A stretch of 64,000 bases of DNA from Escherichia coli. Its GTDB lineage: Bacteria > Pseudomonadota > Gammaproteobacteria > Enterobacterales > Enterobacteriaceae. The notes under the pieces were generated by a model. The model saw nothing but the letters and a program-made list of their open reading frames with translations. It had not been told where the DNA came from and made no database searches. The DNA lies in NCBI RefSeq assembly GCF_003991155.1, contig NZ_CP031293.1; one strand, 5' to 3'. Every line of letters begins with the position of its first letter. Position 1 is the first letter of the stretch. Made by a program: the position numbers and the translations under genes. Below, piece by piece: positions 52,950-64,000 of the stretch.

Positions 52950-53010
52950 ATATCACCTTTTCCCCACGTCATTATGTGGAACACTTCAGCAATATCATCA
53001 GGAGAAACGT

Positions 53011-53778
53011 ATGGCAGAAACCTCTTCAACCACCGCAGGCGCACAAACGTTATTACGTGGACTGGCGGTTCTTAATGCTGTTTATAACGGCTGCCATGAC
53101 CTAAAAAGTATCGGCGAGTTCACCGGCACGACCCGGAGCACAACCCATCGTTTAGTCACCGTTCTGGTGGAACAACGCTACCTGCGCCATGTCCCAACGC
53201 AGGGCTACCAACTGGGTGCCAAACTGATCGAATTCGGTGCCAGAGCACTGGAAAGCACCTCGCTGTACGAAATTGCCCAGCCCGTTTTGCAACGCCTTGC
53301 CCGTTACACCCTGGACACCGTGCATCTGGGGATCGTTGAAGGCGACGAAGTGCTGTATCTGGAGAAGATCAACAGTCAGCGCGGGCTGGAAATGCGCTCA
53401 CGCCCAGGCCATCGCATGCCACTGGCAATCACCGGCATCGGCAAGGCATTGATCCTCAACCGAACAGAAGAAGAGTGGCGCACGCTGTTTAAGACCTGTG
53501 GTGATGAAACAAAACTGGGCGCATTTATTCAGAACATGCGTCGTTATGCCGCCAGTGGTTTTGCTTTTGATCTGGAAGAGAACGAGCCGACTATCCGTTG
53601 CGTTGCAGCGCCGGTTTACAACGCCCGGGATGAAATTGTGGCGGCTATTTCTGTCGCCAGTACCACCACGTATATGTCGCTGGCGCGTCTGGAAGAACTG
53701 GCACCTTACGTCAAATCCTGTGCAGAAGAGATATCCGCTGAACTGGGCTGGGGTAAGCACGTCCGCAAAGATAAATAA
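53011..53778 (+). CDS. IclR-family transcriptional regulator
   Basis: ORF 52924..53778; ATG at 53011 preceded by AGGAG; N-terminal wHTH (LRGLAVLNAV...) and C-terminal effector domain typical of IclR. Confidence 0.8.
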   Translation: MAETSSTTAGAQTLLRGLAVLNAVYNGCHDLKSIGEFTGTTRSTTHRLVTVLVEQRYLRHVPTQGYQLGAKLIEFGARALESTSLYEIAQPVLQRLARYTLDTVHLGIVEGDEVLYLEKINSQRGLEMRSRPGHRMPLAITGIGKALILNRTEEEWRTLFKTCGDETKLGAFIQNMRRYAASGFAFDLEENEPTIRCVAAPVYNARDEIVAAISVASTTTYMSLARLEELAPYVKSCAEEISAELGWGKHVRKDK

Positions 53779-53801
53779 ACCATGATTAAAGGAAACGACT
53801 A

Positions 53802-54806
53802 ATGCCGGGAGCACCCTCATTTATTGCCCTGGACTGGGGAACGTCATCGCTTCGGGCATGGCGTTTTGGCGAATCACCAAATCCACAAGAAAAACGTGAA
53901 TTCCCCTGGGGGATCATGAAATTACCCTCCCAGGCAGCAACACGTGAGGACGCTTTCCACGATACGTTTTTACGTGTCTGCGGCGACTGGCTGGCACAAA
54001 CCCCATGCCCGGTACTGGCTTGCGGCATGCTCGGCAGTGCGCAAGGGTGGCAACCAGCAGCTTATTTACCTTGCCCGGTCACTCTCGAGGGTCTGGCGAA
54101 GCAGTTGACGCCTGTTATCCACCAGCAGCAGACAATGCTGCACATCATTCCTGGCGTGATTAAAGAAGGTGAAATGCCCGAAGTGATGCGTGGCGAAGAG
54201 ACACAAATCTTCGGTGCTATCTCGATGGAACCGGCCCTGCAAAACGCGATCCATCAGGGTATGCCAGTGCTGATAGGCTTACCCGGCACACATGCGAAAT
54301 GGGCAGTAGTTGAAAACAACACCATTACCGATTTCCGAACCTTTATGACGGGCGAGTTATTTGATGTTTTATCCCGCCATTCGATTCTCGGTGCCACCAT
54401 GCATCCTGGAGATGAACCGCACTGGGATGCCTTCACCCACGGGCTGACAGCAGCACAAGAGCATCATCAGACCGGATTATTATCGACGCTGTTTTCGACC
54501 CGTTCGCGCCTGCTGACCAGTAATCTTACGTCGTCCTCGCAGGGGGATTACCTTTCCGGATTACTGATAGGCCATGAATTATGTGGTCTGGCATCCAGTT
54601 TGCTACGTGATTTACCCGCCACAACACCGATCGCCTTAATCGGTAGCGCAAATCTGAACAGCCGCTATTCACAAGCATTCAACCACGTTTTTCCCGACAG
54701 ACAGATACACGCCATTCCCAATGCCACTGAACAGGGATTATGGCGAATCGCCCACGCTGCCGGGTTACTGTCCACCAACGCCAGGGAATGTACCCATGCC
54801 ATTTAA
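53802..54806 (+). CDS. 2-dehydro-3-deoxygalactonokinase (DgoK)-family sugar-acid kinase
   Basis: 334-aa ORF; motifs shared with DgoK as recalled: IALDWGTS-LRAW, VMRGEETQ, PGTHAKW, DFRTFMTGEL, LSGLLIG; RBS AAAGGAAA upstream. Confidence 0.7.
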   Translation: MPGAPSFIALDWGTSSLRAWRFGESPNPQEKREFPWGIMKLPSQAATREDAFHDTFLRVCGDWLAQTPCPVLACGMLGSAQGWQPAAYLPCPVTLEGLAKQLTPVIHQQQTMLHIIPGVIKEGEMPEVMRGEETQIFGAISMEPALQNAIHQGMPVLIGLPGTHAKWAVVENNTITDFRTFMTGELFDVLSRHSILGATMHPGDEPHWDAFTHGLTAAQEHHQTGLLSTLFSTRSRLLTSNLTSSSQGDYLSGLLIGHELCGLASSLLRDLPATTPIALIGSANLNSRYSQAFNHVFPDRQIHAIPNATEQGLWRIAHAAGLLSTNARECTHAI

Positions 54807-55425
54807 TACGCTTTTGCAAAAAACCGGTTTAGTCGCCATTTTACGCGGTGTGAAACCGGATGAGATTGTCGCCATCGGTGAAAAACTGTACGCCGCCGGA
54901 TTCCGCCTGATTGAGATTCCTATGAACTCGCCGGAGGCGTTGCAAAGTATCAGTTTACTGCGCGACGCCCTGCCTAAGGACTGCCTGGTCGGAGCCGGAA
55001 CTGTGCTTTCGGTAGAGCAGGTGGTTGCGGTTAAAGAGGCTGGGGGCCAGATTATCGTGATGCCGCATTGCGATACTGCGGTGATCCGTCGCGCCCGTGC
55101 GCTGGGTATGTATTGTGCGCCTGGCGTCGCCACGCCCACCGAAGCCTTTGCTGCCATTGAACATGGTGCTAATGCCATCAAGCTGTTCCCAGCTGAACAA
55201 ATTACGCCAGAAGTTACCAAAGCCTGGCGTGCGGTTATTCCACAATCCGTTCCGATGTTACCGGTTGGCGGTATCACACCGGAAACCATGGCGCGTTATC
55301 TGAGCCACGGCGCAAACGGCTTTGGCCTCGGTTCTGCGCTATATCACCCCGGCATGACGCCAGAGCAAGTCTATGAAAATGCAGTACTGTTTATGAACGC
55401 ATGGAACAATTTAAATAGCAACTAA
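54796..55425 (+). CDS. KDPG/KDPGal (DgoA/Eda)-family class I aldolase
   Basis: ORF 54721..55425; probable start MPFNTLLQKTGLVAILRGV at 54796, overlapping the kinase 3' end by 11 nt; aldolase-family motifs (IEIPMNSP, GAGTVL, PGVATPTE, VGGITPE). Confidence 0.7.
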   Translation: MPFNTLLQKTGLVAILRGVKPDEIVAIGEKLYAAGFRLIEIPMNSPEALQSISLLRDALPKDCLVGAGTVLSVEQVVAVKEAGGQIIVMPHCDTAVIRRARALGMYCAPGVATPTEAFAAIEHGANAIKLFPAEQITPEVTKAWRAVIPQSVPMLPVGGITPETMARYLSHGANGFGLGSALYHPGMTPEQVYENAVLFMNAWNNLNSN

Positions 55426-55449
55426 CTGATAAATAAGGATATAAAAGCA

Positions 55450-56424
55450 ATGATAAAACATCTTACCTTACCGAAAAAAATGGCTGCAATGGTACTTCTT
55501 GCAGGCGCTGCCCTCAGCATTGCGCCTGTACAGGCAGCCTCCTACCCAACCAAACAGATCGAGTTAGTCGTTCCCTACGCTGCCGGAGGCGGTACGGATC
55601 TGGTTGCCCGTGCCTTTGCTGATGCCGCCAAAAACCATTTACCCGTCAGCATCGGGGTTATCAATAAACCTGGCGGAGGCGGTGCTATCGGCCTGAGTGA
55701 AATCGCCGCTGCCCGCCCTGGCGGTTACAAAATTGGTTTAGGCACAGTTGAACTGACCACCCTTCCCAGCCTCGGAATGGTGCGTTTTAAAACCAGCGAC
55801 TTTAAACCCATTGCCCGTCTGAATGCGGATCCGGCTGCTATCACAGTCCGTGCCGATGCGCCGTGGAATAGCTATGAAGAATTTATGACTTACGCCAAAG
55901 CGAATCCCGGAAAAGTACGCATTGGTAACTCAGGCACCGGAGCTATCTGGCATCTGGCGGCAGCTGCACTGGAAGACAAAACGGGCGCAAAGTTTTCTCA
56001 TGTCCCGTATGACGGCGCAGCCCCTGCCATTACAGGCCTGTTAGGCGGGCACATTGAAGCGGTTTCCGTAAGCCCAGGAGAAGTTATCAACCATGTGAAT
56101 GGCGGCAAGCTGAAGACACTGGTAGTGATGGCGGATGAGCGAATGAAAACCATGCCTGACGTCCCGACGTTAAAAGAGAAAGGCGTTGATCTCTCCATCG
56201 GCACCTGGCGCGGCCTGATTGTGTCGCAAAAAACGCCGCAGGATGTGGTGGATGTTCTGGCAAAGGCAGCAAAAGAGACGGCTGAAGAGCCTGCATTCCA
56301 GGATGCACTGCAAAAGTTGAATCTCAACTATGCATGGCTTGACGCTGCCAGCTTCCAGACCCAAATCAGCGAACAGGAAAAGTACTTTGACGAGTTGCTG
56401 ACTCGCCTGGGCCTGAAAAAATAA
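55450..56424 (+). CDS. tctC: Tripartite tricarboxylate transporter (TTT) periplasmic substrate-binding protein, TctC/Bug family
   Basis: 324-aa ORF; signal peptide; resembles TctC/Bug proteins. Confidence 0.8.
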   Translation: MIKHLTLPKKMAAMVLLAGAALSIAPVQAASYPTKQIELVVPYAAGGGTDLVARAFADAAKNHLPVSIGVINKPGGGGAIGLSEIAAARPGGYKIGLGTVELTTLPSLGMVRFKTSDFKPIARLNADPAAITVRADAPWNSYEEFMTYAKANPGKVRIGNSGTGAIWHLAAAALEDKTGAKFSHVPYDGAAPAITGLLGGHIEAVSVSPGEVINHVNGGKLKTLVVMADERMKTMPDVPTLKEKGVDLSIGTWRGLIVSQKTPQDVVDVLAKAAKETAEEPAFQDALQKLNLNYAWLDAASFQTQISEQEKYFDELLTRLGLKK

Positions 56425-56437
56425 ACCTGAGGTACGG

Positions 56438-56947
56438 TTGATGAACACAAAACAGTCTGTTGCTCAACTCGCCGTACCGCACCGCAAGCGCCTTTCATCA
56501 ACGATGGTGGTGGCGCTGTTACTTTGTGTGGTTGCTGGCGCGGTGATGATTAATGCCGCTGATTTTCCAGCAACGGCCATTGAAACGGATCCCGGTGCAA
56601 GTGCCTTCCCTACTTTCTATGCCTGCGCTCTGATTGTGCTCGCTGTCTTGCTGGTGATACGCGATCTTTTGCAGGCAAAACCAGCCTCTTGCGCCAACGC
56701 ACAGGAAAAACCGGCATTCAGGAAAACGGCAACAGGAATTGCGGCAACCGCGTTTTATATTGTGGCGATGAGCTACTGCGGTTATCTCATTACTACTCCT
56801 GTTTTCCTCATCGTCATTATGACGTTGATGGGCTACAGGCGATGGGTACTCACACCGGGTATTGCGCTGCTGTTAACGGCAATCCTCTGGTTGCTGTTTG
56901 TCGAAGCGTTACAGGTGCCATTGCCTGTCGGCACATTTTTCGAATAA
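56438..56947 (+). CDS. tctB: TTT small membrane subunit TctB
   Basis: 169-aa hydrophobic ORF between tctC and tctA. Confidence 0.7.
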   Translation: MMNTKQSVAQLAVPHRKRLSSTMVVALLLCVVAGAVMINAADFPATAIETDPGASAFPTFYACALIVLAVLLVIRDLLQAKPASCANAQEKPAFRKTATGIAATAFYIVAMSYCGYLITTPVFLIVIMTLMGYRRWVLTPGIALLLTAILWLLFVEALQVPLPVGTFFE

Positions 56948-56959
56948 CAGGGGCCAGCA

Positions 56960-58450
56960 ATGTTTGAAAGTGAACTTTTAACTCAGGGTTTTTCGACATT
57001 ACTCAATAATCCTCAGGCGCTGCTGTTTGCCACTTTTGGGGTGATGCTGGGTATTGTGATTGGCGCTTTGCCTGGTCTGACAGCGACCATGGGTGTGGCG
57101 ATTTTGCTGCCTTTCACCTACGGCATGGAGCCTGTTTCTGGCTTGTTGATGATTTGCGGCGTCTTTTTTGGTGGCGTCTACGGTGGTTCTATCACCGCAA
57201 TTTTGCTCAAAATTCCCGGAACGCCTGCCGCCGCAGCCACCGCTATTGATGGTTATGAGCTGACGAAACAGGGAAAAGCAGGGCTGGCATTGAGTGCCGC
57301 CACGTTCTCTTCCTTTAGTGGCGGAACGCTCAGCATTATCGTGCTGATGTTTCTCTCTCCGGTACTTGCCAGTTGGGCGCTGAAATTTAGTGCCTCGGAG
57401 TCCTTCGCCCTGGCAACCTTCGGACTGAGCATTATTGCCAGTATTTCCGGTGAGTCGCTGATTAAAGGGCTGATTGCCGGGGTTGGCGGATTGCTGATCG
57501 CAACGATAGGCCTTGATCCAATGGGCGGTTTTCCACGGTTTACAGGTGGATTTGTGGAGCTGATGAATGTGCCATTTATCCCGGTGATGATTGGTTTATT
57601 TGCTGCTTCAGAAGCATTCCGCTCTATGGAGCAAAACCAGCAAATTCGTCAGGGGGCGAAGGTGGCTATCGGCAGTCTGTTACTGCCCTGGCAAACACTA
57701 CGCCGCATTGCATTAACCATTTTGCGCTCATCAGGATTAGGGGTTTTTATCGGCATGATCCCCGGTGCGGGGGCGGATATTGCAGCTTTTGTTGCCTATA
57801 ACGAAACTCGTCGTTTCAGTAAGACACCAGAAAACTTTGGTAAGGGTGAAATTAAAGCTGTGGCCTCCTGTGAGGCAGGCGCGAATGGCTGCACCGGTGG
57901 CGCATTGTTACCTATGCTGACGCTGGGGATCCCTGGCGATGCGGTAACCGCCATCATGCTGGGCGCGTTAACGTTACAGGGAATGCAACCAGGCCCGCTG
58001 ATGTTTACCGACCACGGCGATATGGTTTATACACTGTTTGTCGGCATGATCTTTTGTTACTTCATGCTGCTAGTTCTTGGACTGCTCTCTTTGAAAGTCA
58101 TCGGTAACGTGGTGAAGATCCCCGGCAATATTCTCACACCGATGATCCTCGCACTTTGTGTGGTCGGGACTTATGCGTTGAACAATAGCCTGTTTGATGT
58201 TGGCATTATGCTGATTGCAGGCGTGGTGGGCTATTTCATGCAGAAAGGAGGATATCCGGCATCACCCGTAGTGCTGGCATTGATTATGGGCCCGATGGCA
58301 GAAAGTAATTTTCGCCGTGCGCTGTCGCTTTCAGGGGGTTCACTGGACTTTCTGTATACCCGACCGGTCACTCTGGCATTGCTAACTCTGGCAGCCTTTA
58401 CGCTACTGACGCCAATAATCCGCAAAATAATGCGTTTACGGCGTCAGTAA
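56960..58450 (+). CDS. tctA: TTT large permease subunit TctA
   Basis: 496-aa polytopic membrane ORF with Gly-rich TM segments. Confidence 0.8.
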   Translation: MFESELLTQGFSTLLNNPQALLFATFGVMLGIVIGALPGLTATMGVAILLPFTYGMEPVSGLLMICGVFFGGVYGGSITAILLKIPGTPAAAATAIDGYELTKQGKAGLALSAATFSSFSGGTLSIIVLMFLSPVLASWALKFSASESFALATFGLSIIASISGESLIKGLIAGVGGLLIATIGLDPMGGFPRFTGGFVELMNVPFIPVMIGLFAASEAFRSMEQNQQIRQGAKVAIGSLLLPWQTLRRIALTILRSSGLGVFIGMIPGAGADIAAFVAYNETRRFSKTPENFGKGEIKAVASCEAGANGCTGGALLPMLTLGIPGDAVTAIMLGALTLQGMQPGPLMFTDHGDMVYTLFVGMIFCYFMLLVLGLLSLKVIGNVVKIPGNILTPMILALCVVGTYALNNSLFDVGIMLIAGVVGYFMQKGGYPASPVVLALIMGPMAESNFRRALSLSGGSLDFLYTRPVTLALLTLAAFTLLTPIIRKIMRLRRQ

Positions 58451-59390: not shown

Positions 59391-59510
59391 TAAATCACTC
59401 TTCATTCTGCAGGACTGCATAAAAGATGAGCCGATTCAGGCAATGTGATTTGTTGCATGCTGACTATAGTTAACATTGCGCAACATTTTTATAAGGGTAC
59501 GGAGAATACC

Positions 59511-60320
59511 ATGGCAACAACACAACAATCTGGATTTGCACCTGCTGCATCGCCTCTCGCTTCGACCATCGTTCAGACTCCGGACGACGCGATTGTGGCG
59601 GGCTTCACCTCTATCCCTTCACAAGGGGATAACATGCCTGCTTACCATGCCAGACCAAAGCAAAGCGATGGCCCACTGCCAGTGGTCATTGTAGTGCAGG
59701 AAATTTTTGGCGTGCATGAACATATCCGCGATATTTGTCGCCGTCTGGCGCTGGAGGGGTATCTGGCTATCGCACCTGAACTTTACTTCCGCGAAGGCGA
59801 TCCGAATGATTTTGCCGATATCCCTACGCTGCTTAGCGGTCTGGTAGCAAAAGTGCCTGACTCGCAGGTGCTGGCCGATCTCGATCATGTCGCCAGTTGG
59901 GCTTCCCGCAACGGCGGCGATGTTCATCGTTTAATGATCACCGGATTCTGCTGGGGTGGACGTATCACCTGGCTGTATGCCGCGCATAATCCACAGCTAA
60001 AAGCCGCAGTGGCGTGGTACGGCAAACTGACGGGCGATAAGTCGCTGAATTCACCGAAACAACCTGTTGATATCGCAACCGATCTTAACGCGCCGGTTCT
60101 CGGCTTATATGGCGGCCAGGATAACAGCATTCCGCAAGAGAGTGTGGAAACGATGCGCCAGGCGCTGCGGGCAGCAAACGCGAAAGCAGAGATTATCGTG
60201 TACCCGGATGCAGAGCATGCGTTCAACGCTGATTATCGCCCGAGCTATCATGCCGAATCTGCGAAAGATGGCTGGCAGCGAATGTTGGAATGGTTTACAC
60301 AGTATGGTGTTAAAAAGTAA
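59511..60320 (+). CDS. ysgA: Dienelactone hydrolase-family protein
   Basis: ORF 59445..60320; start at MATTQQSGF preceded by GGAGAA; alpha/beta hydrolase. Confidence 0.85.
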   Translation: MATTQQSGFAPAASPLASTIVQTPDDAIVAGFTSIPSQGDNMPAYHARPKQSDGPLPVVIVVQEIFGVHEHIRDICRRLALEGYLAIAPELYFREGDPNDFADIPTLLSGLVAKVPDSQVLADLDHVASWASRNGGDVHRLMITGFCWGGRITWLYAAHNPQLKAAVAWYGKLTGDKSLNSPKQPVDIATDLNAPVLGLYGGQDNSIPQESVETMRQALRAANAKAEIIVYPDAEHAFNADYRPSYHAESAKDGWQRMLEWFTQYGVKK

Positions 60321-60576
60321 CGCCATAGTCGCTAAATCTGATGATTAAGCTCACGCAATTTCAACGATTTTTTTAATCTCAAAACCATACAGCATCAAAA
60401 AATTTGTTGCTGTATGCCACTCTTTGACTCCCTTCACATTCGTCATCACACCACCTGCTGAATGCAAAAATTTCGTTGCTGTGCGGCAAACTTTTTTCCT
60501 GTTTTGTGCCGCTTTTCTCCTGAATACTCGTTCTCAGAACAACTGGATCGTTTAAACATCAGACAGGAGATTTACC

Positions 60577-61245
60577 ATGACGCAATCCATTTTTCAGGCT
60601 CAACCCTTTGAATTACCTTTTGATCCGCGCACAACTGCACTGGTCATGATCGACATGCAGCGTGACTTTGTCGAAGCAGGGGGCTTCGGTGAGGCACTGG
60701 GCAATGATGTTTCACTGGTACGCACGGCTATCGCACCATGTACAGAGGTGCTGGCAGCCGCACGTCAAAAAGGAATTATGGTTATTCATACTCGTGAAGG
60801 CCATCGTGCAGACTTAAGCGACTGCCCGCCAGCCAAACTGACGCGCGGCGGAAAAACCTTTATTGGTGAACCAGGACCGATGGGACGCATTCTGGTCAGA
60901 GGTGAAGCAGGTCATGACATCATTCCTGAACTGTACCCGGTGGCAGGCGAACCGGTGATTGATAAGCCTGGCAAAGGCGCGTTTTATCAAACCGACTTAC
61001 ATCTGATTTTGCAAAACCACGGTATCAAGACGCTGATAGTTTGTGGTGTTACAACCGAAGTTTGCGTAACCACCACCGTGCGCGAAGCAAATGATCGTGG
61101 CTATGAATGCATTATCCCGGAAGATTGTGTCGGCTCCTATTTCCCGGAATTCCAGAAATACGCCCTCGAGATGATCAAAGCACAAGGTGCCATTTTCGGT
61201 TGGGTTACTGATTCCAAAGCCATTATTGCAGGCCTGGAAGGCTAA
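60577..61245 (+). CDS. Isochorismatase-family cysteine hydrolase (amidase-like)
   Basis: 222-aa ORF; Asp in MIDMQRDF, Lys in KPGKGAF, Cys in VCGVTTEVCV: the D-K-C triad pattern of this family. Confidence 0.75.
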   Translation: MTQSIFQAQPFELPFDPRTTALVMIDMQRDFVEAGGFGEALGNDVSLVRTAIAPCTEVLAAARQKGIMVIHTREGHRADLSDCPPAKLTRGGKTFIGEPGPMGRILVRGEAGHDIIPELYPVAGEPVIDKPGKGAFYQTDLHLILQNHGIKTLIVCGVTTEVCVTTTVREANDRGYECIIPEDCVGSYFPEFQKYALEMIKAQGAIFGWVTDSKAIIAGLEG

Positions 61246-61250
61246 CACCG

Positions 61251-62111
61251 ATGGTACAGGTTACGCTTTGCGCATCGTCGTTGGGATATCTTTTCCCGCA
61301 GAATGAAACGCAAGATTTACGTCTACATAGCGCTTTTAAACATGCGGTAAATCTGTATTCAGACGCGGGAACATTCATCACTCTGTTGTGTGCGCAAACG
61401 TATCTGAATCTCCCTGATGCAGCCAGAGTCTGGCTACCTGAATGTTGGGACTGGCGAAGAGAGATTGCCCATTCAGATCCCATTCAGTTAACCCCAGGCT
61501 TACTGCGGACACCTCGATTTTGTGTGGCGCTCGAAAACGCAACGCTCTGGCAGTCGCCATTTGTGGGGGGAATGCTGACACTTGAGGCATTCCCTTTGGT
61601 TTTCCAGCACTACCCAACGATGGCATCGCAACGGCTTTTATTTTGTCTGGAACATAACGTTCAAAGCACATTGCACCTGCCGGATAGTCTCACGCACCAG
61701 GGATTAGCGATTATGGAGCATCCAGATGCGCTGGAACGCCAGGTGCCACAACTGATCGGCTTTGGTAAAGGCTTAACGCCCGATGGAGATGACTATTTGT
61801 TGGGCTATCTGGCAGCACTCTGGTTATGGCAACTCCCTGCACCACTTGCCGATCATCAATACCGGTTGCAGCAGGTAATTGATCAACATGCGCACAACAC
61901 CACGGATATCAGTCGTCATTATCTGGAGCGTGCGCTTCAGGGACATTTTTCAGAACCGATTTGCCAGTTACTCGCACAACTGGTTGGGAGTGCATCGGCA
62001 ATGACAATCGCATCCTGTGCAGAACAGGTCATGCAATTTGGCGCAACGTCAGGAGTAGATTGCCTTGCAGGAATGCTGCATGGCTTTCGAACCCTGAACA
62101 CCATAAATTGA
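61251..62111 (+). CDS. Conserved hypothetical protein, possibly DUF2877 (YahE/YlbF-like)
   Basis: 286-aa ORF starting 5 nt after the hydrolase stop; GFGKGLTPDGDDYLLGY motif; assignment by position next to the FdrA-like gene, not verified. Confidence 0.45.
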   Translation: MVQVTLCASSLGYLFPQNETQDLRLHSAFKHAVNLYSDAGTFITLLCAQTYLNLPDAARVWLPECWDWRREIAHSDPIQLTPGLLRTPRFCVALENATLWQSPFVGGMLTLEAFPLVFQHYPTMASQRLLFCLEHNVQSTLHLPDSLTHQGLAIMEHPDALERQVPQLIGFGKGLTPDGDDYLLGYLAALWLWQLPAPLADHQYRLQQVIDQHAHNTTDISRHYLERALQGHFSEPICQLLAQLVGSASAMTIASCAEQVMQFGATSGVDCLAGMLHGFRTLNTIN

Positions 62112-62205
62112 TTTCAACCTTTTCTCCCGTAGCCCGTTTATGGGGCTACACGGGGATGCTTTGCCCGAATTTTGCTATCGGGCGGAATGAAACAGGCGTA
62201 ACAGC

Positions 62206-63765
62206 ATGAAAGTTAAATATAAAGTTTTCAGTAATCTTTATCAGGACTCAGTTTCTCTGATGCAGATTTCCGCGCAAATCAGCAAGTTGCCCGGTATTCA
62301 ACAGGCCTCGGTCGTCATGGGAACACCCAATAATCTCGAGCAATTGAGCGATGCGGGTCTGGGTAACGAAATCAACGCCAGTCCCAATGATTTAGTGATT
62401 GCAGTCATGGGTGAAGAAGATATTTGCAATGAAGCACTGGTACTGGCCCAGCAACGTCTGACCAGCAAACCCGATGATGAAACGGATAGTGGCATTAAAA
62501 CACCGGAAAAGGTCAGCCTGGAAATGGCACTGGAAGCCGAGCCCGAAGCCAACCTGGCACTCATTTCTGTACCGGGAGACTACGCCGCCGCCGAAGCAAT
62601 TAAAGCGTTAAACCTCGGAATGAACGTGATGATGTTCAGCGATAACGTCAGTATCGTGCAGGAAAAATCCATCAAAACGCTTGCCCGAGAACGTCAGCGC
62701 ATCGTAATGGGACCTGACTGTGGAACCGCCATTGTTAACGGCATTCCGTTAGGCTTCGCTAATGTGGTGAAACGCGGAGCAATTGGTGTTATTGGCGCGT
62801 CAGGCACCGGGCTACAGGAAGTGACTTGCCGAATCGACCAGCTCGGAGCGGGTATTTCTCAGGCGTTGGGAACAGGCGGACATGATCTCAGTGAAGAGAT
62901 TGGTGGAATATCGATGCTCTTCGCTTTAGATGCGCTGGCGCAAGACGATGAAACTCGCGTGATTGTGCTTATTTCAAAACCGCCTTCACCGATCGTTGCC
63001 CGGACTATTCTGGAGCGTGCCGAGGCTTGTGGAAAACCCGTGGTGGTGAATTTCCTCGGTGCGAATCCGCATGATCTGGCACGTCCCAATATCACCGCGG
63101 CCACCACACTTGCCAGCGCCGCAAATATCGCCGTGGCGTTACTGAATGATCAACCACTTCCGACTATCGAGACCGAAATTTCCTGCGACGATCTCACAAT
63201 GTTACAAAACGCCTGCCAGCGCCTGCCAGCCCATCGCCAGGCGATACGCGGTGTTTTCGCCGGAGGAACCTTCTGCTACGAAGCGCAACTTATCTGCCAA
63301 CAAAAGGGATTCAGCGCAGCCTCCAATACGCCAGTTGCGGGTAATCGTGCTCTGGCAAATATCTGGCAAAGCGAAGATCACACGTTGATCGATATGGGCG
63401 ACGATGATTTCACCCGTGGCAAACCGCATCCAATGATCGACCCGACTCTGCGCAATCAACGTCTGCTCAACGAACTCAACGACTCACACACTGCCGTCGT
63501 GTTATTCGACCTGGTACTTGGTTATGGCGCTTCCACGACGCCTGCCAGCGAATTACTGGACCAACTTTCACACATCGACATGAATAACGCACCGTTGCTG
63601 ATTGCGCACGTTTGCGGAACGGAAGCTGATCCGCAAATACGCAGTCAGCAGATAAGCGCACTACAAAATGCAGGGGTCATCATCGCCAGCAGCAATGCAC
63701 AGGCGGCGTTATGGGCCAGCACCGTTGCACAGACTCAGTTGCAGAAAAAGGGGCTAAACGCATGA
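62206..63765 (+). CDS. FdrA-family protein (CoA-binding, succinyl-CoA synthetase alpha-like fold)
   Basis: 519-aa ORF; motifs recalled from FdrA: QDSVSLM, VMGTPNN, NVMMFSDNV, MGPDCGT, IGVIGASGTG, PHPMIDPTLRNQ. Confidence 0.75.
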   Translation: MKVKYKVFSNLYQDSVSLMQISAQISKLPGIQQASVVMGTPNNLEQLSDAGLGNEINASPNDLVIAVMGEEDICNEALVLAQQRLTSKPDDETDSGIKTPEKVSLEMALEAEPEANLALISVPGDYAAAEAIKALNLGMNVMMFSDNVSIVQEKSIKTLARERQRIVMGPDCGTAIVNGIPLGFANVVKRGAIGVIGASGTGLQEVTCRIDQLGAGISQALGTGGHDLSEEIGGISMLFALDALAQDDETRVIVLISKPPSPIVARTILERAEACGKPVVVNFLGANPHDLARPNITAATTLASAANIAVALLNDQPLPTIETEISCDDLTMLQNACQRLPAHRQAIRGVFAGGTFCYEAQLICQQKGFSAASNTPVAGNRALANIWQSEDHTLIDMGDDDFTRGKPHPMIDPTLRNQRLLNELNDSHTAVVLFDLVLGYGASTTPASELLDQLSHIDMNNAPLLIAHVCGTEADPQIRSQQISALQNAGVIIASSNAQAALWASTVAQTQLQKKGLNA

Positions 63766-64000
63766 ATACCTTATTTAATCAGCCTTTGAAGGTTGTGAAC
63801 GCGGGACTACACAGTTTTGCTGACAATATTCAACATGCCGGGGGAAGCGCAATTGCACTCAACTGGCAGCCACCAGCACAAGGCGATATTGACGCTGGAT
63901 TGGATCTGGCATCGTTGCTACGTCATCCCCTGGTAGAAAATGCCAACCAAATCGCCATGACACGTTATCTCGAAGCACAGCCCGTGCTGGTGGATGTCAT
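63762..64000 (+). CDS. Downstream ORF translationally coupled to the FdrA-like gene (DUF1116 YlbE/YahG-like by position), 3' end beyond window
   Basis: ATG overlaps the FdrA-like stop (ATGA); frame open to the window end (MNTLFNQPLKVVNAGLHSF...); family inferred from gene order only. Confidence 0.45.
   Translation, partial: MNTLFNQPLKVVNAGLHSFADNIQHAGGSAIALNWQPPAQGDIDAGLDLASLLRHPLVENANQIAMTRYLEAQPVLVDV

Follow-up and report, generated by a model that had tools for sequence, protein, structure and literature searches.

Promoters controlled by classical LysR-type transcriptional regulators (LTTRs) have a recognition binding site (RBS) near -65 and an activation binding site (ABS) near -35, and multi-site relatives exist, such as GcvA at gcvT. 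Among the regulators of this type that have been studied in Escherichia coli, PunR (YdhB) is an adenine-responsive activator of punC that binds upstream of its target promoter (PMC8376909). Its operator, TsttwTCAAwAwwwTTGaaGGCA, lies in the punR-punC intergenic region of K-12; footprinting predicted it, ChIP-exo, fluorescence polarization and EMSA validated it, and the oligonucleotide that was tested contains tttcaaaaattttgca (PMC8376909). AllS is a LysR-type activator of the allD and allF (fdrA-ylbE-ylbF-ybcF) operons of the allantoin regulon; at allF its site lies far upstream, at -203 to -144 from the ATG, and this operon is also ArcA-dependent (PMC12535856).

Many E. coli strains carry an island between ysgA and metE, referred to as "GR 29 metE..ysgA" in a study that discussed it by gene content only (PMC12928451). 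Our literature search for regulation of this island returned gene-content descriptions only. The operator-promoter region of the island was thus previously undescribed, and it is newly defined here for a member of the PunR/AllS-like LysR subfamily.

Results

The island and its gene context

We analyzed a 64-kb stretch of E. coli DNA (hereafter, the window), in which positions 59400-64000 are 100% identical to several E. coli chromosomes. In strain TCM3e1 the cluster is ordered ysgA, cysteine hydrolase, DUF2877, FdrA, DUF1116, carbamate kinase, a 129-aa allophanate-hydrolase-related protein, an NCS1 'cytosine' permease and a LysR-family regulator, with metE, in convergent orientation, as the next gene. 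The proposed regulated operon begins with the cysteine hydrolase gene (BiuH-like; 60577-61245), which is preceded by the Shine-Dalgarno sequence AGGAG (60565-60579 including the ATG, + strand) and whose product scores 279.8 bits against a biuret amidohydrolase model, below the cut-off of 370. A first-pass annotation of the window stated that no regulator gene is visible in it for this cluster, which is literally true but misleading: the LysR-family gene closes the cluster ~4 kb past the window end (locus L001, 22469-23365).

The 256-bp spacer between ysgA and the hydrolase gene was found in ~1500 of 5426 complete E. coli genomes (~28%), nearly always at ≥99% identity, ExPEC and ABU strains included. 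Homology to K-12 breaks inside the last ysgA codons (~60300-60325 in the window; 2816-2854 in the K-12 locus, L084), and the YsgA C-termini differ; therefore, the whole spacer is part of the island. Its G+C content is 40%, compared to 51% for the cluster. In K-12, a hairpin between ysgA and metE, GACCGGGTGGTATTACCACCCGGTTT, reads as a bidirectional terminator and is without counterpart in island strains. Because island strains are without this K-12 ysgA terminator, ysgA transcription may run into the island promoter region.

Several further features of the gene context were observed. The hydrolase is unusually conserved, with 67-92% amino acid identity from E. coli to Mycobacterium, Chloroflexi and Polyangiaceae (loci L002-L081), and the DUF2877 protein encoded beside it is just 26-59% identical across loci. 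The window has a second insertion relative to K-12 (~53010-58450; L001 7613-13052), located between rmuC and udp, which adjoin in K-12; it encodes an IclR-family regulator, 2-dehydro-3-deoxygalactonokinase, KDPGal aldolase and a TctC/TctB/TctA tripartite tricarboxylate transporter. The genome scan also gave 18 plasmid places, and plasmid P2 of E. coli strain GZ2408C (L085, 1-8442) carries the entire cluster with its LysR gene. Identity of this copy to the chromosomal versions is 96% for the hydrolase, 91% for the regulator and just ~67% for the promoter; the operator sites are degenerate (8.5, 5.9 and 6.5 bits with the matrix described below), and the DUF2877 gene is frameshifted. The plasmid copy may be decaying or differently regulated.

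The island spacer contains repeated copies of a palindromic motif

The spacer contains a palindrome with arms CATACAGCA (60386-60394) and TGCTGTATG (60408-60416), 13 nt apart, and a direct repeat, CAAAAAATTTGTTGCTGT (60396-60413) and CAAAAATTTCGTTGCTGT (60465-60482), whose copies start 69 bp apart and are identical at 16 of 18 positions. A repeat finder placed the first feature in a 31-bp near-perfect palindrome (60386-60416; 14-nt arms, 13/14 complementary, 3-nt centre) and extended the direct repeat to 30 nt at 77% identity. Both features, in their shorter form, had been recorded by the first-pass annotation, and we confirmed their positions and found that they exceed shuffle expectation. 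When the 256-bp spacer was shuffled 1000 times with dinucleotide content preserved, the 16/18 direct repeat was never reached (maximum 15), a 13/14 inverted repeat occurred once, and a perfect 9-nt inverted repeat occurred in 26 shuffles. The motif repeat and palindrome in this spacer are not due to chance.

The unit of the first copy recurs in the second as a degenerate palindrome, and it is better described as the 21-bp palindrome AGCATCAAA-N3-TTTGATGCT, with core ATC-N9-GAT (T-N11-A), at 60391-60411 and 60460-60480. The repeat that was first written as AAAAATTT-N-GTTGCTGT is thus real, but the functional unit is rather a palindromic LysR box, ATCAAA-N3-TTTGAT with GCA/TGC flanks. The outer CATACA/TGTATG arms are specific to E. 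coli.

We refer to the upstream copy as site 1 (60386-60416, spanning the palindrome and the first repeat copy) and to the downstream copy as site 2 (60460-60480); no strand is assigned to any motif copy. Site 1 has the core AGCATCAAAAAATTTGTTGCT at 60391-60411 (25.8 bits; centre 60401, ~-135 from the predicted transcription start), and site 2 reads GAATGCAAAAATTTCGTTGCT (17.2 bits; centre 60470, ~-66) and is the proposed RBS. A weak copy, site A (TTCAACGATTTTTTTAATCTC, 60360-60380; 7.1 bits; centre 60370, ~-166), lies 31 bp upstream of site 1. Within the 64-kb window, sites 1 and 2 are the only matches to the motif matrix at ≥12 bits.

The motif is conserved and co-occurs with a LysR gene

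For comparative analysis we used 80 loci from many genera, obtained by scanning a genome collection with the hydrolase, and mapped their gene order by tblastn. The gene order, including the LysR gene, is syntenic across many genera. The LysR homolog is located at the 3' end of the cluster in Enterobacterales, Burkholderiales, Neisseriales and Xanthomonadales, directly upstream in Vibrionales, Shewanella, Halomonas and Pasteurellaceae, and a few loci have it in divergent orientation; actinobacterial, Chloroflexi and some Caballeronia loci contain no LysR homolog.

A de novo count of gapped dyads in 46 upstream regions found CAAA-N3-TTTG in 22, versus 0.25 expected from shuffles, and TCAA-N5-TTGA and ATCA-N7-TGAT are nested inside this dyad. 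The refined matrix has the consensus AGCATCAAAAATTTTGATGCT, and its most informative positions are a symmetric C and G at ±5 (1.8 bits each), which is typical of a dimeric sequence-specific factor. The consensus ATCAAA-N3-TTTGAT is equivalent to ATC-N9-GAT and has the dyad-symmetric T-N11-A form of a LysR operator. As a check for circularity, we made a second matrix from which enterobacterial loci were left out (26 loci); it gave the same consensus, and sites 1 and 2 ranked first and second in the window.

A site of ≥12 bits was present ≤350 bp upstream of the hydrolase gene in 48 of the 49 loci with a linked regulator, compared to 2 of the 31 loci without one; common descent and the G+C-rich sequence of the actinobacterial loci, which have no regulator, inflate this contrast, and the figures are not phylogenetically independent. 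Within Caballeronia, the site is present in regulator-bearing loci and absent from regulator-less ones. The density of hits was 80 per 28 kb in upstream regions versus 31 per 1489 kb elsewhere in the loci. Two enterobacterial loci (L011 and L018) have the motif and no regulator gene within the 20 kb fetched.

In a MAFFT alignment of the spacer from 20 Enterobacterales species, both sites were kept in position and sequence, and the proximal site is conserved in Vibrionales, Alteromonadales, Neisseriales, Burkholderiales and Xanthomonadales. Where the regulator gene is divergent, the site is located in the shared intergenic region, 67-71 bp from the regulator start codon, which is the classical LysR arrangement. 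Two divergent E. coli lineages differ at 21 spacer positions, none of which lies in site 2, the -44 element described below, the -10 hexamer or the Shine-Dalgarno sequence, and the single lineage changes in site 1 and in a CRP-like box fall in non-informative spacers. The first-pass annotation had named lack of conservation at orthologous loci as a refuting result for its prediction of tandem sites for a dedicated regulator; the motif proved conserved, the opposite of that result, and the conserved sites and their co-occurrence with the cluster LysR gene favor that prediction.

In three Caballeronia loci (L034, L047 and L050) we observed another palindrome resembling the motif, GAATTCAATTATTTCGAATTC, downstream of the predicted promoter at ~-80 relative to the hydrolase ATG. 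With their promoter predicted ~220 bp ahead of the ATG, transcripts from these loci would have a long 5' UTR.

The motif lies at a fixed distance from a predicted sigma-70 promoter

Conserved blocks in the 20-species alignment, separated by variable sequence, are in order the distal CTCACA, site A, site 1, TnTGA-N6-TCACA, site 2, AAAtcaTTT..CTGT, tATACT, and the Shine-Dalgarno sequence with the ATG. The block at site A reads caaC.A.tTTTTT, and its spacing to site 1 is 31-32 bp in those Enterobacterales that have site A. The predicted sigma-70 -10 hexamer, AATACT (60524-60529, + strand), is TATACT in most orthologs and would place the transcription start at ~60536. In nearly all gamma- and betaproteobacterial loci, 51-53 bp separate the centre of the proximal site from the start of a -10-like hexamer (TATACT, TATAAT, TACACT, TAAAAT or TAATAT), which puts site 2 at ~-64 to -66 from the predicted start; in four divergent-regulator loci this distance is 62 bp.

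A conserved block, AAAtcaTTT..CTGT, follows site 2 at a distance of 22-23 bp. In the window, a degenerate motif copy, TGCGGCAAACTTTTTTCCTGT (60482-60502; 4.6 bits; centre 60492, ~-44), overlaps a weak -35 region and is a candidate ABS. Across 49 loci, the mean matrix score has a peak at +22/+23 from the proximal site (-10, versus a background of -26), and as this mean is still negative, the ABS resembles the motif weakly.

A generic promoter scan called no + strand sigma-70 promoter in the spacer because the -35 region is poor, and a poor -35 is expected for an activator-dependent promoter; the promoter is predicted from the conserved -10 hexamer by itself. In common with LysR operators, the region has a weaker site near -35 and a LysR gene linked to the target operon. 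Unusually for a simple RBS/ABS promoter, the highest score belongs to the distal site 1 (~-135) and not to site 2 at -66. A different promoter, with site 1 at -65, was considered and rejected because the alignment has no conserved -10 at the required position. A search of the spacer for sigma-54 elements (TGGCAC-N5-TTGCW, GG-N10-GC; ≤3 mismatches) gave no match, and the alignment contains no conserved GG/GC pair. Pattern tests for LexA, FNR, Nac and NtrC found nothing at the sites.

As the sites lie upstream of the predicted promoter, they would be operator DNA and not part of a transcribed leader, where they had first been placed. The two copies had also been described as phased, but their 69-bp spacing corresponds to ~6.6 helical turns, which puts sites 1 and 2 on different faces of the helix.

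CRP-like boxes and helical phase

A CRP-like box, TTTGA-CTCCCT-TCACA (60423-60438, no strand assigned; 9/10 match; centre 60430.5, ~-105.5), is located between sites 1 and 2. In most Enterobacterales such a box matches at 8-9 of 10 positions and lies -39.5/-40.5 or -50.5/-51.5 from site 2; per 350 bp, the chance rate is 0.15 for ≥8/10 and 0.016 for ≥9/10. The 20-species alignment contains the corresponding conserved block t.TGa.....cTCACA. Matches of 9-10/10 are also found in Motilimonas, Avibacterium, Shewanella and Thorsellia loci. A sequence resembling the cAMP-CRP site (TGTGA-N6-TCACA) is thus present at a conserved position, at which CRP would be predicted to bind and function. Relative to the predicted start (±2 bp), the box centre at ~-105.5 is neither clearly in nor clearly out of phase with the class I/II positions (-41.5, -61.5, -71.5).

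A distal CRP-like box, GATGA-N6-TCACG (60340-60355, no strand assigned; 7/10 to TGTGA-N6-TCACA; centre 60347.5, ~-188.5), falls in the conserved block gcTCACA.Tc, with the right half CTCACA, and its match rises to 8/10 in Buttiauxella, Citrobacter and Serratia, where it lies -123.5/-134.5 from site 2. The strain of the window has a minority G at 60355 (TCACG); most E. coli have TCACA, which is also found in ABU 83972 (99.6%-identity class), strain E69 and other genera.

The spacing between sites 1 and 2 falls into classes of 69-71, 79-81 and 100-103 bp. An insertion downstream of the CRP-like box and ahead of site 2 accounts for an 11-bp difference between classes, and the classes share a helical phase of ~0.6 turn. 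A Rayleigh test of this periodicity gave p ~1e-6, which we discount because the loci are phylogenetically dependent and amount to effectively three independent classes. The shared phase suggests a stereospecific higher-order complex that could involve a second tetramer, looping, or CRP bending.

Identity of the regulator and weighing of alternatives

The best family match of the island regulator is PunR (2e-85), followed by AllS (2e-63), with both matches below cut-off. Because its score of 286.7 bits against the PunR family is below the cut-off of 345, the regulator is, by family score, not a PunR ortholog; it is 35% identical to K-12 PunR, which is a separate gene. The cluster regulators, whose overall identity is 39-99%, have a nearly invariant recognition helix, KVPSAISYTVKKLEE. 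The PunR helix, RVPSAVSYTVRQLEE, is close to it, and that of AllS, KTTATISYRIKLLEE, differs. A search for the motif at ≥3 bits upstream of the LysR gene (L001 22300-22480) found none, and classical autoregulation is not evident in E. coli. The 77-bp spacer between the permease and LysR genes (L001 22392-22468, outside the window) contains GGGTATACTCAGG, which is similar to the -10 region of the main promoter, and a perfect hairpin, GGCTGAATCTGGAGAGATTCAGCC.

From the comparative sequence data, we assign a probability of roughly 0.7 to the reading that the sites are operators of the island's PunR/AllS-like LysR regulator, which would bind them and activate, rather than repress, the operon from -66/-44.

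One alternative is that the sites are bound mainly by housekeeping PunR, making the island part of the purine-nucleoside regulon. The core of the published operator, wTCAAwAwwwTTG, is the same, the K-12 PunR operator scores 14.7 bits with our matrix, and the recognition helices are nearly identical. By eye, however, site 1 matches the PunR consensus at all 13 central positions and not at most flank positions, with GCA/TGC in place of sttw/aaGGCA. The motif also tracks the cluster-linked regulator, within Caballeronia too, and lies in the shared intergenic region where that regulator is divergent. In a punR mutant punC was the only gene changed, although this was determined in K-12, which is without the island (PMC8376909). 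We consider control mainly by PunR unlikely.

The first-pass annotation had also raised a nucleoid protein, and the motifs could be A/T-rich targets of IHF, Fis or H-NS that shape or silence a horizontally acquired promoter. The low G+C content of the spacer (40%, against 51% for the cluster) and the A/T tract at the motif centre are compatible with this proposal, but it is otherwise without support: neither site matches the IHF (WATCARNNNNTTR) or Fis (GNNYAWWWWWTRNNC) consensus with ≤1 mismatch, the most informative motif positions are the symmetric C/G at ±5, and the sites keep 51-53 bp to the -10 across classes of Proteobacteria and co-occur with the LysR gene. We regard a nucleoid-protein target as very improbable.

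An equally poor prospect, in our estimation, is that the palindrome acts as RNA, either as a hairpin or terminator at the end of the ysgA transcript or as a leader or attenuator of the cluster. It is true that 60386-60416 folds into a strong hairpin (MFE of the 125-nt region, -23.7 kcal/mol; z-score, -3.5) and that island strains have lost the K-12 ysgA terminator. However, the hairpin is followed by CCACTCTTTGAC and not by a U-tract, and a terminator scan made no call there. The site is kept where ysgA is not the upstream neighbor, and what is conserved is sequence (CAAA/TTTG invariant) and not pairing, the outer stem being E. coli-specific. Both sites are also upstream of the conserved -10, and an Rfam covariance scan of the spacer at a permissive E-value gave no match above threshold, only sub-threshold matches to unrelated families. 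The best of these was Mu-gpT-DE RNA (60518-60579; 19.8 bits versus a gathering threshold of 49; E = 0.034), which lies over the predicted 5' UTR and which we read as chance. A terminator-like call at 60475-60487, a 5-bp stem inside site 2, was likewise rejected as chance.

Finally, we give scarcely any credence to a CytR/CRP nucleoside-regulon promoter beside CytR-regulated udp, in which AATGCAA...GTTGC of site 2 would represent CytR octamers (GTTGCATT) flanked by CRP sites, and we rejected it, since, for all that E. coli site 2 reads AATGCAA-N7-GTTGC and CRP-like boxes are present, AATGCAA is not conserved (orthologs have GCTGCAA, GAATCAA or CATCAA) and the motif is also found in Betaproteobacteria with the cluster regulator.

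Discussion

The promoter region of the ysgA-metE island, a putative catabolic island for nitrogen compounds, contains a conserved palindromic motif that lies at a fixed distance from a -10-like hexamer and co-occurs with the LysR gene of the cluster. We propose that sites 1 and 2 (ATCAAA-N3-TTTGAT, T-N11-A) are operators for the LysR regulator encoded by the last gene of the island. Site 2 (~-66) would serve as the recognition site and, together with the degenerate -44 site, would let a regulator tetramer activate the sigma-70 promoter. This promoter (-10 at 60524-60529) would drive the hydrolase-DUF2877-FdrA-DUF1116-carbamate kinase-permease operon, presumably upon activation by a small-molecule inducer. 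Site 1 (~-135, the best palindrome) and the weak site A (~-166) would form an upstream auxiliary module, found in Gammaproteobacteria, and the putative CRP site would lie between this module and the core.

The combination of a hydrolase, an oxamate-carbamoyltransferase-like FdrA/DUF1116/DUF2877 module and a carbamate kinase suggests that a carbamoyl or ureido compound is turned into carbamoyl phosphate and ATP. The proposed regulator-operator pair provides an experimental handle on the inducer and hence on the pathway substrate. The comparison also extends the validated PunR operator to the wider PunR/AllS-like subfamily sharing the TCAA-N5-TTGA core. The finding is incremental and changes no concept; its only potentially unusual aspects are the proposed multi-site, CRP-containing, phase-preserving layout and possible cross-talk with PunR. 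A doubtful but conceivable extension is a nucleoprotein complex of fixed geometry, in which LysR tetramers on site A plus site 1 and on site 2 plus the ABS would be bridged over a CRP-bent segment, with phase kept across the spacing classes, and in which PunR would cross-talk via the shared core. If this were true, an ExPEC-associated, ATP-yielding catabolic island for carbamoyl compounds would be tied to purine and carbon status.

Of the systems described to date, PunR is the closest characterized paralog of the regulator, with a near-identical recognition helix, and its operator and that of the island have in common the TCAA-N5-TTGA / CAAA-N3-TTTG core and an A/T centre. The two differ in the operator flanks, which are GCA/TGC in the island and GTTT/AAGGCA (sttw/aaGGCA) in the PunR operator, and in layout: at punC there is one site, with the regulator gene divergent, whereas the island has two strong and two weak sites, CRP-like boxes and a regulator gene at its 3' end. 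AllS belongs to the same LysR subfamily and controls a paralogous FdrA/DUF1116/DUF2877/carbamate-kinase module, and a search for the island motif in the K-12 allD-allF and allS-allA spacers found no match. Compared to classical LTTR promoters, the island has its strongest site far upstream, a CRP-like box between the modules and, in Enterobacterales, a regulator gene that is co-directional at the operon end rather than divergent. It shares with them the T-N11-A dyad, a site at ~-66, a degenerate site over a poor -35, and additional sites far upstream.
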